From assembly GCA_005776475.1 (NCBI GenBank), contig SXPB01000094.1, forward strand, positions 1-59,256: 59,256 bases of DNA. Reading direction: 5' to 3'. Below, piece after piece: positions 53,743 through 59,256 of this stretch. Below the pieces are notes generated by a model. It had not been told where the DNA came from. It saw only the letters and a list, made by a program, of their open reading frames with translations, and made no database searches. Numbering within the stretch: the stretch's first letter is position 1; each line of letters opens with the position of its first letter. A program made the position numbers and the translations under genes. Source of the stretch: Planctomycetia bacterium (lineage in GTDB: Bacteria > Planctomycetota > UBA1135 > UBA2386).

Positions 53743-54285
53743 ATGAGCTCGCTGTTCGCGAACGTGGCATCGGCGCCGCCGCCAGCGGCCACCGTCGAAG
53801 CGACGATCCGCCGGCACCTGCAAGGGGTGTGGCGCTATGTGCGCATGCTCGGTGCCGGCCCGGAACTCGCCGATGACCTGACGCAGGAAGCCTTCGTTGT
53901 CGCCCTGCGGCGTGACGCGACCGGGCTCGAACCGGCGGCGTTGGCGACGTTCTTGCGCCGGACGGCGCGCTTCCTGTTCTTGCGGCATCTGCGCGATCGC
54001 GAGGACGCGGTCCTGCTCGCGGACGCCGTCGATGAGCTGTGGGCCCGCGACTGCGAAGCCGACGACGGCGACGGCATGCTGGCGGCGCTGCGCGCTTGTG
54101 TCGGCGAGTTGCAGGGACGAGCCCGTCTCGCGGTCGAACGCAGCTACGGCCTCGTGGCCGAGCCCGAACGCTCGCGCGTCGAGCTGGCGCGCGAACTCGG
54201 CATGGAACCCAACGGCGTGAAGACGCTGCTGCAGCGCGTGCGCCAGACGTTGCGTGCCTGCGTCGAACGGAGGCAGAAGTCATGA
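53743..54285 (+). CDS. ECF RNA polymerase sigma factor
   Basis: VWRYV..ADDLTQEAF; ELARELGM...VKTLLQRVR; AAGGA RBS. Confidence 0.9.
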   Translation: MSSLFANVASAPPPAATVEATIRRHLQGVWRYVRMLGAGPELADDLTQEAFVVALRRDATGLEPAALATFLRRTARFLFLRHLRDREDAVLLADAVDELWARDCEADDGDGMLAALRACVGELQGRARLAVERSYGLVAEPERSRVELARELGMEPNGVKTLLQRVRQTLRACVERRQKS

Positions 54286-55415
54286 ACCAGGATCCACGAA
54301 CGGACGCGCGCGAGCGCGCCGAGGAGTCGCAGATGGACACGTTGTTGCACGAAGCGGCGGGCTACGGCCCGAGTCCTGCCTTGGTCGATCGCATCCGCTT
54401 CGCGCTGCAGGCGCCCGGGGCGCCGCCGCTCGCGGTTGCCCGGCCGCGCGCGCTGATGCCGGCGCAGTGGTTGTTCGCCGCGGCGCTGGTGGTCGGCGTC
54501 GGTGTGGTGACGGCGGTTGCCTTCATGCGTGGCAGTGAGCAGAAGGCGCTGGCGACGGTGCCGCAGGATCCGGTTCCGGTGCCTACGCCCGTTCCGACGC
54601 CGACTCCCACCCCCACGCCGACTCCCGCGCCGACTCCCGATCCCGCAGCGAAGCAGGAGCCAAAGCCGACCCCCGCACCCGCAGCGAAGCCGGCGTTGGC
54701 CTGGTTCACGTTGATCGCCGACTACTCCGACAACCGCATCCGCGAGTACGACGACAAGGGCAAGCTCACGCTGGAGCTCAACGAGATCTTCGGCGCCTGG
54801 GACGTCGAGCCGCTCGCCAACGGCAACCTGCTGATCACCGAGTTCTCCGTGAGCCGCGTCCAAGAAGTGACGCGCACCGGCAAGCAGGTCTGGGTCTTCG
54901 AAGACTTGAAGAACCCTTACGACGCCGACCGCCTGCCCAACGGCAATACGCTGATCGCGGACACGTTCGGCAGCCGCGTGATCGAGGTGAATGCGAAGGG
55001 CGAGATCGTCTGGACCTTCGACAAGAAAGTTCGTCCGTTCGATGTCGATCGCCTCGCCAACGGCAACACGCTGATCACCGACGTGGTGAAGGAGCGCATC
55101 ATCGAAGTCGACGCGAAGGGGGCGATCGTATGGGAACTTGATGAAATGCCGAACGCGCACGACGCCGATCGATTGGCGAACGGCAACACGCTCGTCACGC
55201 TGCGCAACAAAGGCGTGGTTCGCGAATACGACCCGGACGGCAAGGTCGTTTGGGAGGTCGACGGCCTGTCGTCGCCGAGCGACGCCGACCGCCTGCCCAA
55301 CGGCAACACGCTCGTGGCCGAGAACACGCGCGTGCGCGAGTTCGACAAGGACAAGAAGGTCGTCTGGGAGACTCCTTCGACCTGGGTGGTCGAAGTCAGT
55401 CGCTACCAGCGCTGA
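54282..55415 (+). CDS. Putative anti-sigma factor with Pro/Thr linker and beta-propeller sensor
   Basis: ATGA overlap with the sigma gene; one TM; (PT)n linker; repeats DADRLPNGNTLI..RV.E....G.IVW. Confidence 0.8.
   Translation: MNQDPRTDARERAEESQMDTLLHEAAGYGPSPALVDRIRFALQAPGAPPLAVARPRALMPAQWLFAAALVVGVGVVTAVAFMRGSEQKALATVPQDPVPVPTPVPTPTPTPTPTPAPTPDPAAKQEPKPTPAPAAKPALAWFTLIADYSDNRIREYDDKGKLTLELNEIFGAWDVEPLANGNLLITEFSVSRVQEVTRTGKQVWVFEDLKNPYDADRLPNGNTLIADTFGSRVIEVNAKGEIVWTFDKKVRPFDVDRLANGNTLITDVVKERIIEVDAKGAIVWELDEMPNAHDADRLANGNTLVTLRNKGVVREYDPDGKVVWEVDGLSSPSDADRLPNGNTLVAENTRVREFDKDKKVVWETPSTWVVEVSRYQR
54571..54690 (+). repeat. Coding low-complexity (Pro-Thr/Pro-Ala)n linker
   Basis: Imperfect 6-bp ccgact/cccgcg-type repeats encoding PVPVPTPVPTPTPTPTPTPAPTP. 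Confidence 0.8.
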
Positions 55416-55416
55416 G

Positions 55417-57861
55417 TCACTTCGTCCGGCCCGCCGCCGCGTTCATCGCGTCGAGGAACTTGCCCCAGTTCTCCGTCTGCGCGCCCGGCGTGAAACCGTC
55501 GGGCTGCGCTTCGCCGAGCACCTTGTTGGTCTTCGGATCGAAGACCACGAACGTGGGCATCGCCCGGATCTTGGTGAACTGCTTCTGCAGCTCGCGATTG
55601 CGCGCGAGTTGTTCCTTGGTCAGGTGCTTCTGCAGATCGACGTGCAGACGCGCTTCCACGAACCCCTTCTTCATCGTTCCGGCGACCGCCGGACGCAGGA
55701 AGACGTCGTCTTCCATGGCGCGGCAGTTGATTCAATTGAACCCGGTGAAGTTGTAGAGCAGCAGCTTGTCCTCGGCCTTGGCAACTTCGAGCGCGCGATC
55801 GCCGTCGTCCTTCACGATCGCGTGGTAGGCGCTCTGCTTCGGCTTTCCGTCATTGGTCGCGCCCGAGGCATCCGCCCGCGTCGCCGACAGCGGCGCCGAA
55901 TAGGGCGGCGCGAACGCCGTCATGTAGTAGTCGAGCTTGTAGCCCATCGCGCCGAACAGGAAGTAGGTCGCCACCAGCACGACTGCCATGCCCGTGGCCA
56001 TGCGACCGGCGCCGACGCCTTCGTTGACGGTGCCGGCCTTGCGCAGGATGCCGAACAGGTACATCGCCCACAGCACGAAGATGGCGACGATCAGCAGCAG
56101 GAACAGTTCGCGCGGCAGGGCATTCCAGTCGAGCGCGATGTCGACCATCGACACGAACTTCAGGGTCGCGGCGAGTTCGACGAAGCCGAGCGAGACCTTC
56201 AGCGTCTCCATCCAATCGCCCGAGCGCGGCAGGGATCGCACTTTGCTCGGCATCAGCGACAGCACTACGAATGGTAGAGCCATCGTCAGGCCGAACACGG
56301 CCATGCCGACGGAGACTCGCGTGTAGCCGAGTTCGACAATCTGCGGCAGGATCGTGCCAACGATGGGTGCCGTGCAGGTGAACGACGTGATCACCAGGGC
56401 GGCGCCCATGAAGAACACGCCGGCATAGCCGCCGGTGGAGCTCGCCTTGCCGGCGAGGCTCTGCAAGAACTGCGGCGGCTCCAGCGTGATCCAGCCGAAC
56501 AGCGAGAACGAGAACAGCAAGAACACGATGCCGATCACCGAGTTGGTGGCCCAGTGGTTGGCGATGTCGAGGATGACCGTCGACAGCAGCACGCCCACCA
56601 ACACGAACATCACGATGATCCCGAGCCCATAGGTGATGGCCAGCGACAGAACGTTGCCGCCGCGCTTCTCCGCCTGCTTCGTGAAGAAGCTGAAGGTGAT
56701 CGGGATCATGGGGTAGGTGCACGGCATCGCCAGGGCGAACAGGCCGCCACCGATGCAGGCGAGGATCAGCACCCACCAGTTCATGTACGGGTTCTCTTTC
56801 GTGCCGGTGTCCGCGGACGATTCCCCGGTTCCGTTCGTCGGCTTCGGCGGATCCTGCTTCGGCGTGTCTTGCTTCGGGGGATCCTCCTTCGGCGGCGCAG
56901 CGGGCGCGGCAGTGCGGTCGGCGCGCGCGTCGCCGGCTTCGACCGTGAGCTTCACTTCGAAGTCGAGTTGCGAGGTCGGTTCGCACACCCTGGAGTCGCA
57001 GATCTGGTAGACGAGCGCTCCGGAAACGTCGACGACGCCCGGTTTGGTGGCCGCTGGCACGCGGAACGCCTGCTTCACCTCGAACACCGGCGGCAGCGGG
57101 TAGGTGGTCTTGTTGGCCTTTTCCGTCGGTGTGCCGGGCGGCACGTCCGCCTCGCCGATGCGTTCGAGCACACCAGCGTCGACGTTGTCGGCTGGCAGGC
57201 CGACCGGCGTCTGCTCGGTCTCCAGCGCGCCGTACGCATGCCAGGCGTGGTCGTGCACCGTGACCGTCAGCACCAGCGTCGCCACTTCGCCAGCGCGCGC
57301 CGTTGCCGGCTCGAACTTCGCCGCGATCGTGACCTTCTCGTCGGGAGCGAGCTGCAGGCCGGGCTTGGTCGTGGTCGGCATCGCCGCCGGATCACCGGCA
57401 GTGACGACGAGCTTCGCGGTGAACGCGGCCTTGTCCGGCGGCAGGCAACCGGTGTCGTTGCAGATGCCGTAGTCGAGTTCGCCGGTCACCGTGATCTCGC
57501 CAGCGGCGAGGCCGGCCGGCAGCTTCATCGGCTGCTTGACCTTGAACTGGTTCGGCAGCGGGAACGTCGGCAGGTTGCCGTGCATCTTGCGCATGCCCGG
57601 CGGGATCTGCGGCTCGCCGTCCAGTTCGAGGCCGTTGGCCTTCACGTTCTCGGCCGTCAGGCTGACCGGCGTGTTGGTCTTCTCGAGCGTGCCGTAGGCG
57701 TGCCAGCCTTCGGTGACGTCGCAGGACAGCACCAGCACAACCTTGTCGCCGGGTTTGGCCGTCGCCGGCTCGAATGCCGCGGTCAGGGTGAGGGCTCCGT
57801 CCTGGGCCGCAAGCGGCGCCAGCAGAACGAACAGGAAGGCTGTGAACGTGAGCCAGCGCAT
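55417..57861 (-). CDS. dsbD: DsbD-like protein-disulfide reductase, probable selenoprotein (in-frame TGA at 55732-55734)
   Basis: Two DsbD-alpha domains (GWHAY..ICNDTGC; WHAY..ICDSRVC); TM domain (MPCTYPMIP, SFTCTAP); then NFTGFN-TGA-INCRAME continuing in frame into a thioredoxin domain ending at 55417. Confidence 0.85.
55685..55727 (-). promoter_or_regulatory. Candidate bacterial SECIS hairpin
   Basis: mRNA ACUGCCG-CGC-CAU-GGAAGAC[GAC]GUCUUCC-U-GCG-UC-CGGCGGU. The apical loop starts with G, with 24 nt between it and the UGA. Confidence 0.65.
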
Positions 57862-57964
57862 ACGTGCTTGCATCGGGGGCGGGGATGATACGAGCCCGCC
57901 CCGATTCGGCACGTTGCCGCGGCAACTTGTCAGCAAAAGGCCGCGCCATCGGCCGTTCGGCGCA

Positions 57965-59256
57965 TCACTTCCTGGGTTGCAGGTGGATCTGGGTGATCGC
58001 GCCCTTGGCGGCCTTCTGGATCTCGGCGTCGGCGTCCTTCGTCCAGTCGATCAGGAAGGGCAGCGCTTCCGGCACGCCGAGGGTGCCGAGCGAGGTGATC
58101 GCGAGCAGGCGCTGTTCCTTTCCGGCACCGGGCTTGCTCTGCAGGAGGAGCTTCTCGACGGCGCTCGAAGGTGATGCGTCGAGGCCCTTGGTGATGCGTT
58201 CCCAGTGGGATTGCTGTTCGTGCACGAAGCGGATTCGGGTCAGGGCTTCGGTGGCGACCTCCTGCACTCTCCCATCTGGGTCGCGCAAGAGTGCCAGCAA
58301 GCCCGGGATGGCTTCGGGAAGCGCGCGGTCGCGGGTGTGCCTGCAGACGTCTTCACGAATGTAGGGATCTGGATCCGTGAGCAGTCGCAGGACCACGTCG
58401 ATGGCGATCGTCTTGTTGCTACGCGTCAGTTCACGGAAGACGTGTTGGCGAACTCGCGGATGCCGATGGGCAAGCAGCTCCTTAAGGTCGATTGCGACGC
58501 CGTTACTGATCAGCCGATCCACTGCCAGGGAGGTCATTTCCTCCTCAGGATCTTGCAGGAGCGCTTTCACGGTCTCGGCAAACGCACGGATGGTCTCCGA
58601 GTGGGCCTTGTTGATCAGGTCGTAGCTTCCGGTCGGTTCGCTGAGTGCCGTGCGAACGAGATCGGCAAGCGGTCCCTTGTTGTCTCGTGAATTGACGAGG
58701 TTCATCACGGTCTCTGTCCACGTGACGTATCCGCTCTGGAACGGAAACCTCATCGGTTGGCAACGAACCAATTCCATCAGCATGCGGTCCGCCACCAGCT
58801 CGCCAGAAACGTCATGCGGCGCCAGCAGCTGCGCATCGGCCTTGCCGACACGTTCGAGCAGGCCAAGCACTTCGGCCTCCGAGTACGGATGCGGGGGCTT
58901 CGGCGTCTTCTGCACGAGCCACGCCAACGGCTTGCCTTCGAATGCGTCCTCGCCGCCGTACGGATGCTTGGAGCGGATCGGATACCGCGAGTAGGCGAAG
59001 GTCAGATCGAGCGCCTGTTCGTCCTTCATCGACAACAGCGCGAGCAGCAATCGCCCGCGTGTGTCCGGAAACATCGACTCCGCGCTCGCCATCGTTCGCA
59101 TCGCGGCGCGCACCGTCTCGTCCTGCGAGCGGCGACTCAGTTCGAGCATCGCAAGGACAGAGGAACGGTCCTTGCCTTGGTCGGTGTCTTTGGTGTGCCG
59201 CCAGTCGTCGAGGATCAACGCAGCTGCGTCAGGATGGCCCGTGCGCACCATGGCGC
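57965..59256 (-). CDS. HEAT-repeat protein, probably 5'-truncated by window edge
   Basis: LLTDPDPYIRE, LLRDPDGRVQEVATEAL and DADAEIQKAAKGAI. Confidence 0.75.
   Translation of the reverse strand, partial: AMVRTGHPDAAALILDDWRHTKDTDQGKDRSSVLAMLELSRRSQDETVRAAMRTMASAESMFPDTRGRLLLALLSMKDEQALDLTFAYSRYPIRSKHPYGGEDAFEGKPLAWLVQKTPKPPHPYSEAEVLGLLERVGKADAQLLAPHDVSGELVADRMLMELVRCQPMRFPFQSGYVTWTETVMNLVNSRDNKGPLADLVRTALSEPTGSYDLINKAHSETIRAFAETVKALLQDPEEEMTSLAVDRLISNGVAIDLKELLAHRHPRVRQHVFRELTRSNKTIAIDVVLRLLTDPDPYIREDVCRHTRDRALPEAIPGLLALLRDPDGRVQEVATEALTRIRFVHEQQSHWERITKGLDASPSSAVEKLLLQSKPGAGKEQRLLAITSLGTLGVPEALPFLIDWTKDADAEIQKAAKGAITQIHLQPRK

Follow-up and report, generated by a model that had tools for sequence, protein, structure and literature searches.

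The stretch of DNA analysed here (the window; 59,256 nucleotides, contig SXPB01000094.1 of the Planctomycetia bacterium assembly GCA_005776475.1) was found to contain, on its minus strand, a gene for a DsbD-type transmembrane thiol:disulfide reductase with an in-frame UGA at codon 710, and this UGA very probably stands for selenocysteine (Sec, U). At the motif the minus strand reads ttc acc ggg ttc aat TGA atc aac tgc cgc gcc atg gaa, which corresponds to F-T-G-F-N, followed by the TGA and by I-N-C-R-A-M-E. The program-made list of open reading frames divided the gene into a piece of 734 amino acids with a TTG start (55732..57936, minus strand) and a piece of 99 amino acids (55417..55716, minus strand), both lying in the same frame. 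The initial annotation had joined these pieces into one frame with the UGA at the first cysteine of the CxxC motif and had predicted a membrane selenoprotein of about 814 amino acids; the strand reading, the two pieces and the coordinates were all confirmed, and the length was found to be 814 residues. U710 was the sole internal stop across the 814-residue read-through, and the relatives aligned along residues 1-813 in a single frame with one TGA.

From its N-terminus, the protein is predicted to consist of a signal peptide, an alpha domain in two tandem copies, a membrane beta domain that resembles CcdA and, at the C-terminus, a gamma domain of the thioredoxin fold (Table 1), and the DsbD type assigned to it beforehand was borne out by Pfam matches to DsbD_N, DsbD_TM and Thioredoxin_2. 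The two alpha copies (residues about 22-165 and 177-314) were found to share 46% identity (E 2e-38), each with its own Cx4C pair. The N-terminal part of the relatives was likewise matched as separate stretches, which corresponds to the alpha duplication (window 56920-57786). The beta domain contained the DsbD_TM family (PF02683) at residues 362-571 with 76.6 bits, and C381 and C496 were aligned with both cysteines of the CcdA structure 5vkv. Hydropathy gave seven peaks over the threshold, and an eighth helix would lie at about residues 553-571, inside the Pfam match, since a signal peptide with both soluble ends outside requires eight membrane helices. In the gamma domain, Thioredoxin_2 (PF13098) was found at residues 694-784 with 35.3 bits against a cut-off of 27, and together with Thioredoxin_7 the matches spanned residues about 686-784. 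All of the redox cysteines expected in a DsbD protein were present, namely C134/C139, C288/C293, C381 and C496, followed by U710-x-x-C713 in which the first cysteine is replaced by the UGA.

Table 1. Features of the DsbD-type gene and of the RNA downstream of its UGA codon (window positions)
Feature	Position	Strand	Remarks
Putative DsbD-type selenoprotein coding sequence	55420..57861	-	814 codons, ATG at 57861, translated with TGA=U
In-frame UGA, codon 710, position 1 of the thioredoxin motif U-I-N-C; proposed Sec	55732-55734	-	
True terminator, likewise TGA	55417-55419	-	
Probable signal peptide, residues 1 to ~19 (MRWLTFTAFLFVLLAPLAA)	57805..57861	-	hydrophobic peak at residues 1-26; putative cleavage site
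Alpha domain 1 (DsbD_N), residues 26-148, Cys134 + Cys139	57418..57786	-	PF11412, 44.2 bits, cut-off 25
Alpha domain 2, residues ~177-314, Cys288 + Cys293	56920..57333	-	tandem duplicate of alpha domain 1
Transmembrane beta domain, residues 362-643, Cys381 + Cys496	55933..56778	-	DsbD_TM/CcdA core and two further hydrophobic segments
Gamma domain (thioredoxin fold), residues 681-809, site U710-I-N-C713	55435..55821	-	PF13098 + PF13899
Hairpin 1, GGAAGAC-GAC-GUCUUCC	55698..55714	-	7 bp, loop GAC, 24 nt UGA-to-loop
Hairpin 2, CCGGC-GGUC-GCCGG	55679..55692, loop 55684-55687	-	44 nt UGA-to-loop

The UGA was found to be conserved among the relatives, with cysteine as the alternative at the same column, as the initial annotation had anticipated. 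In a six-frame search of 40 relatives the gene was present in all, and the aligned codon, read in the 30 best loci, was TGA in 24 and TGC or TGT in the remaining 6. When 401 genomes sampled from the phylum were scanned, 204 contained a match at E <= 1e-30, and among the matches listed (150 rows) the codon was examined in 130. The first CxxC position of these 130 rows was occupied by TGA in 97 (29 of the 30 phylum loci and 68 of the 69 further rows marked as having one TGA) and by a cysteine codon in 33; the exceptional row among the 69 (L115) proved to be a cysteine form with its TGA elsewhere. The rows outside the 130 were 15 that ended short of the site and 5 that spanned it and were marked as having no TGA (G312, G060, G232, G300 and G092), and 59 further matches lay outside the 150. 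The same aligned codon is thus TGA in 24 of 30, 29 of 30 and 68 of 69 cases, more than chance would give. Pooled as distinct sequences, 115 contained TGA (Sec form) and 38 contained TGC or TGT (Cys form) at the same column; 31 family groups, one without a label, contained the Sec form and 12 contained the Cys form; both forms were present in four families.

The codon itself was unchanged at 55732-55734 in the contigs of all four sequencing runs (4/4) from three studies; these are assembled contigs and not raw reads, and one of the runs may be the source of this DNA. The contigs of two more distant strains varied at nearby positions, for example 55741, yet kept the TGA. The initial annotation had called for a check of sequence support at this codon and had described TGA as an ordinary stop elsewhere in the window, and both points were upheld: TGA was found to terminate 20 of the 31 long non-overlapping frames of the window, and this gene itself, so that there is no genome-wide recoding.

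Beyond the UGA, the frame ran on without interruption to a proper stop in each of the 47 Sec-form loci for which flanks were listed (53 loci were listed in all), and the terminating stop of the Sec-form loci was often TGA itself. In comparisons with the three nearest relatives, the ratio of nonsynonymous to synonymous substitution rates (dN/dS) over the 74 codons after the UGA was 0.18, 0.26 and 0.32; the measure was restricted to these three closest pairs, as 3 of the 10 pairs were misaligned in the comparison, which used no gaps, and the other, distant values near 1 were unreliable. The substitution pattern in the three close pairs indicates that the downstream part is under purifying selection. 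In an alignment of 49 gamma domains the positions T49, G50, C53 (U), C56, R57 and E60 were invariant, which gives the motif FTG..UxxCR.ME. The AlphaFold2 model of the gamma domain showed a thioredoxin fold with a mean predicted local distance difference test (pLDDT) score of 91.3, and the U/C residue was located at the start of helix 54-61, the first active-site helix. Foldseek matched this model to 3f9u, to DsbH and to the gamma domain of E. coli DsbD (2fwf, 1vrs_D and 1uc7), and phmmer aligned U710 with the first cysteine of GCVNC in PDB 3f9u.

These results bear directly on the simplest alternative, in which the UGA is a genuine stop, the product is an alpha-alpha-beta protein lacking gamma, and the downstream 104 codons are a relic or a separate fragment of 99 amino acids. 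This is the gene callers' own reading, and it agrees with the presence of CcdA-type proteins without a gamma domain in the same phylum and with rows that match only query positions ~6-310. It is nevertheless extremely unlikely, as the TGA was found exactly at the catalytic cysteine column in the 115 distinct sequences from about 30 families, with the downstream frame open in every Sec-form locus checked and under apparent purifying selection in the three close pairs, and a complete thioredoxin domain is obtained only with read-through. A separate fragment starting at M716 would lose strand 1 and the active-site residue, and a relic would not outlast such divergence, which reaches down to about 31-35% identity.

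The selenocysteine reading, which is strongly supported by these observations, presupposes a decoding machinery, and the initial annotation had proposed a search for selA, selB, selC and selD. The genome's own assembly (348 contigs, 75.65% complete) was found to contain selA, selB, selD and tRNA-Sec (selC), all over their curated cut-offs. The selB gene scored 351.8 bits and tRNA-Sec scored 75.5 bits, with the ARAGORN call SeC(tca). The selD gene (L001; G000:C8:27713-28630, minus strand) scored 357.7 bits and contained an in-frame TGA of its own in the glycine-rich loop GSGUAAK, so that SelD, as read from its gene, is itself a selenoprotein in this genome. The selA gene was found in two pieces (294.8 and 152.9 bits; L003/L004) at contig ends, namely the end of G000:C8 and the start of C238. 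These pieces cover model positions 175-454 and 1-174, respectively, which corresponds to an assembly break and not to a broken gene. Of the 113 other TGA-form genomes, 109 had a SelB score over the curated cut-off (78 of 80 and 31 of 33).

Two conserved hairpins were found 3′ of the UGA, inside the coding sequence (Table 1). Hairpin 1 folded at -7.9 kcal/mol (z -2.91), and 4 of its 7 pairs were changed on both sides among 46 Sec-form sequences. Hairpin 2, which is capped by an invariant GGUC loop, folded at -11.0 kcal/mol together with one flanking pair (6 bp as folded; z -2.65), and 4 of its 5 pairs showed compensatory changes in the same 46 sequences. By eye, its stem was found as GAGGC/GCCUC, UUGGC/GCCAA, CCAGC/GCUGG, CCCGC/GCGGG and CCGGA/UCCGG, variants that alter the encoded amino acids and preserve the stem, and the hairpin was absent from the six Cys forms of the same family. 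Taken over the 46 sequences, the two-hairpin structure contained 83.7% paired cells against 77.6% in shuffles (none of 500 reached the observed value) and 40-61% with slid partners, and double-sided changes were present in 28 cells against 6.9 expected.

Under a strict GU-loop criterion (at least 5 bp, a loop of 4-5 nt, GU at loop positions 2-3 and a loop start at +36..+74), which was picked after the sequences had been seen, such a hairpin was present in 53 of the 112 Sec forms, in 1 of the 38 Cys forms and in 36 of the 1606 background windows. When the same type of hairpin was sought over +15..+89, it was present in 66 Sec forms, and the loops of these were mostly GGUC (32), followed by CGUG(C/A) (10) and AGUU (9). 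The spacing from the UGA was 44 nt in 40 of them, 52 nt in 9 and 20-26 nt in 14, and in the last group the GU loop was located on hairpin 1 itself. Three Sec forms, L069 (G072), L082 (G265) and L088 (G281), were found to contain no hairpin-2-type GU-loop stem at the usual place, and the decoding element of these three, if any, must differ.

The GGUC loop of hairpin 2 is the best candidate for the loop of the SelB-binding selenocysteine insertion sequence (SECIS). As in the SECIS of the E. coli fdhF type, the hairpin lies 3′ of the UGA inside the coding sequence, and its apical GGUC is presumably the loop that SelB binds in the SECIS of E. coli fdhF and Moorella fdhA. The bacterial SECIS (bSECIS) model, in the portion of the review that was consulted (PMC13188914), comprises a loop of 3-9 nt, a stem of 4-16 bp, a G in the first two loop positions, a spacing of 16-37 nt and a minimum free energy (MFE) of -7.5 or lower. 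Hairpin 1 lies within all of these constraints and hairpin 2 within all of them except the spacing.

Besides that spacing and the late choice of the strict criterion, several observations weigh against the selenocysteine reading or against the part that the hairpins would play in it. Unlike the fdhF type, the GGUC loop is 44 nt from the UGA, beyond the 16-37 nt of the model as given in the consulted text, with a second conserved hairpin in between. Only the five outer pairs of hairpin 1 were kept by RNAalifold, with a covariation term of -0.29. Hairpin 1 also overlaps the conserved peptide M-E-x-x-x-F-P and, by eye, could form in several Cys forms too. Sec and Cys forms did not differ in the MFE of the region +13..+78 (p = 0.14), and a loose definition of the hairpin proved unspecific, with 103 of 112 Sec forms, 21 of 38 Cys forms and 821 of 1832 background windows. 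The whole 101 nt fold from the UGA gave no signal (z = 0.16), the signal being limited to the individual hairpins. A rival long stem, in which alignment columns 11-17 pair with 47-53 and hairpin 1 forms the tip, fits most of the sequences; it showed no compensatory change, and its paired share was reached by 37 of 500 shuffles. An Rfam scan of 55550-55800 at E <= 10 gave two chance-level matches to frameshift elements only, the range of SECIS models in that copy of Rfam having been left unchecked. As to the machinery, 4 of the 113 TGA-form genomes (completeness 76-93%) were without a SelB match, and SelB was present in 30 of the 38 Cys-form genomes, which makes it a weak discriminator of the Sec trait.

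The four genomes without a SelB match would also suit a second alternative, in which the UGA is recoded to a residue other than selenocysteine, with a near-cognate or suppressor tRNA inserting cysteine, tryptophan or another amino acid. This is scarcely plausible: those genomes are only 76-93% complete, TGA is the commonest stop of the window and terminates this very gene, the full Sec machinery is present in the genome, and a conserved GU-loop hairpin follows the codon. Moreover, Cys/Sec pairs are the rule at this position of the thioredoxin fold, as judged from the UxxC entries in the consulted part of the review (PMC13188914).

The proposal that the Cys forms result from loss of the Sec trait was mostly rejected. 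With SelB in most Cys-form genomes, trait loss alone does not account for the Cys form, and the proposal fits only family f13. The five genomes of this family (G208, G241, G257, G346 and G426; 99-100% complete) contained the Cys form and no SelB match, and f13 is the one lineage in which the Cys form goes together with what appears to be a lack of the Sec trait.

The distribution of the two forms was followed on a FastTree tree of 152 sequences, which is unrooted and carried long-branch warnings (L174/L184, L183 and L133). The Sec/Cys state was found to change at least 10 times on this tree, with 6 changes forced by well-supported branches, against an average of 34 for shuffled labels. The window sequence was located inside an all-Sec clade of 14 rows, and the six Cys forms of its family were nested among Sec forms. 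As the tree is unrooted, it does not tell the direction of gain and loss.

The changes on the tree also bear on a third alternative, which is compatible with selenocysteine insertion: a selenium-dependent switch, in which full-length Sec-DsbD would be made with selenium and the protein lacking gamma without it, both products being used. Termination and selenocysteine insertion compete at the UGA of bacterial selenoproteins, and the truncated product, which would end just past the last membrane segment and a linker, would still comprise an entire alpha-alpha-beta module. The 10 or more Sec/Cys changes, however, suggest interchangeable forms and not a selected truncation, and such a switch is considered improbable.

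The truncation of these proteins by standard pipelines, which the initial annotation had foreseen, was evident in the public records. Among near homologues in public collections, 94 of 98 ended at ...NFTGxx, that is, at the UGA, and where a source gave a name this was 'hypothetical', 'CcdA', 'DsbD family' or 'thiol:disulfide interchange protein', with no selenoprotein among the names given. The best 150 cluster representatives of a library of 1.84 billion proteins were found to comprise 98 that end at the UGA, 39 that read through with cysteine and 13 fragments. No model of NCBIfam release 20 was over its cut-off for this protein. The NCBIfam DsbD model NF001419, which describes the E. coli-type subfamily, gave 120.6 bits against a cut-off of 330, and the protein is therefore of DsbD-type architecture and not a member of that curated subfamily.

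Like the DsbD proteins of E. coli and Neisseria, this protein contains alpha, a membrane beta domain with two cysteines, and a gamma thioredoxin domain with a CxxC-type site. The gamma model superposed on the E. coli structures 2fwf, 1vrs_D and 1uc7 with template modelling (TM) scores of 0.68-0.70 relative to the target; the phmmer search against PDB did not reach E. coli DsbD-gamma. Unlike those proteins, it has selenocysteine proposed in place of the first gamma cysteine and two tandem alpha domains, whereas E. coli DsbD has one. The closest solved structure, by sequence (E 5e-08) as well as by fold (TM score 0.69-0.73), was the C-terminal domain of the 'putative exported cytochrome c biogenesis-related protein' of Bacteroides fragilis (PDB 3f9u), in which the motif FTGYGCVNCRKME was aligned to FTGFN-U-INCRAME, with cysteine instead of selenocysteine. 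TsoB (NCBIfam NF045694), a rhodanese/DsbD fusion-like selenoprotein, has a membrane domain of the DsbD type in common with this protein (116 bits over residues 356-634); only that domain was matched, and the score is far below the TsoB cut-off of 805. In the review's entries consulted, the Sec residues of TsoB lie in UxxxxU, not in a gamma UxxC, and TsoB is classed as a rhodanese-like domain-containing protein (PMC13188914). No rhodanese family was present among the five Pfam matches of this protein, although no search was aimed at rhodanese or UxxxxU.

The initial annotation had added that DsbD is not a textbook selenoprotein family, which overstates the novelty: a UxxC 'thiol:disulfide interchange protein' family is listed in the consulted parts of two papers (PMC13188914 and PMC2398784). 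The review gives it as a predicted selenoprotein family with PF13098, UxxC and the exemplar WP_011366075.1, from Kryukov and Gladyshev 2004 (PMC13188914). Tables of a further paper report it in Geobacter and Syntrophus of the Deltaproteobacteria (PMC1794560), and table 2 of the study of marine Global Ocean Sampling (GOS) reads enters the family under 'Trx-like 2' (cd02953) and counts 22 Sec sequences and 2,098 Cys sequences for it (PMC2398784). The present protein, compared by description only, agrees with the 2004 family in having selenocysteine proposed as the first residue of UxxC, a Thioredoxin_2-type (PF13098) domain and the usual database name of DsbD; it differs in that the 2004 family, in the parts of these sources consulted, was reported from Deltaproteobacteria and marine reads and not from Planctomycetota. 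We take cd02953 to be the DsbD-gamma model, and on that identity the known family is probably DsbD-related.

Neither the membrane nor the alpha Pfam families of DsbD appeared in any entry of the review's table, in the part consulted (PMC13188914). Selenoproteins have been reported in two planctomycete genomes, according to the consulted part of PMC4807772, and no description of a Sec-containing DsbD in Planctomycetota was found in the literature as consulted, which did not extend to the selenoprotein list of that paper.

A mechanism may be proposed in which SelB with Sec-tRNA(Sec) would be recruited by mRNA structure just 3′ of the UGA, so that UGA710 would be decoded as selenocysteine instead of stop. 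The recruiting structure would most likely be the GC-rich GGUC-loop hairpin, and hairpin 1 would serve as a folded spacer that reduces the effective distance, or would be the SECIS itself. The nucleophilic N-terminal residue of the gamma CxxC would then be selenocysteine. In E. coli DsbD, electrons pass from cytoplasmic thioredoxin to the membrane cysteine pair, then to gamma, to alpha and to periplasmic clients. By analogy with this route, electrons in Sec-DsbD would pass from cytoplasmic thioredoxin to C381/C496, followed by the U710-C713 selenylsulfide of gamma, the cysteine pairs of the alpha domains and the periplasmic clients. The first gamma residue would take electrons from beta and attack alpha, and selenocysteine, as the better nucleophile and leaving group, would speed both of these exchange steps.

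The gene was found between a convergent gene on the plus strand (54039-55415), which is beta-propeller/arylsulfotransferase-like and has its end 1 nt away from the DsbD stop, and a HEAT-repeat gene upstream on the minus strand (57965-59251); neither of these two neighbours was an obvious redox partner. Further in-frame TGAs were found in relatives at G039:C138:5037-5366 and G002:C45:4963-5406, one in a separate thioredoxin-like match and one in an alpha-domain-like match, and these may mark further selenoprotein candidates or just the ends of genes.

The Sec-DsbD of Planctomycetota is best filed as a phylum-wide, systematically mis-annotated member of an already predicted kind of selenoprotein, and no new principle is involved. 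Its noteworthy features are the tandem duplication of the alpha domain and the unusual distance that separates the SECIS candidate from the UGA, and the hairpin spacing bears on the SECIS-UGA distance permitted in bacteria. A wider proposal, which is less likely than not to hold, is put forward tentatively: that Sec-DsbD is the predominant and possibly the ancestral form in Planctomycetota, that envelope reducing power is selenium-dependent in much of the phylum, and that the SECIS is bipartite, with the GGUC hairpin 44-52 nt downstream behind a folded spacer. If true, this would be a class of bacterial SECIS beyond the spacing window of standard search models, and it would help to explain the absence of the family from annotation and, as DsbD, from selenoproteome tables.

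Hundreds of records would be corrected by a curated model that takes Sec into account. The repeated Sec/Cys switches provide natural paired variants for the benefit of selenium in a disulfide cascade. The protein would be a rare case of selenocysteine in an integral membrane, extracytoplasmic redox relay, and selenocysteine at the relay point of an envelope reducing pathway would couple the upkeep of the periplasmic redox state to the supply of selenium in an environmental phylum of wide distribution.

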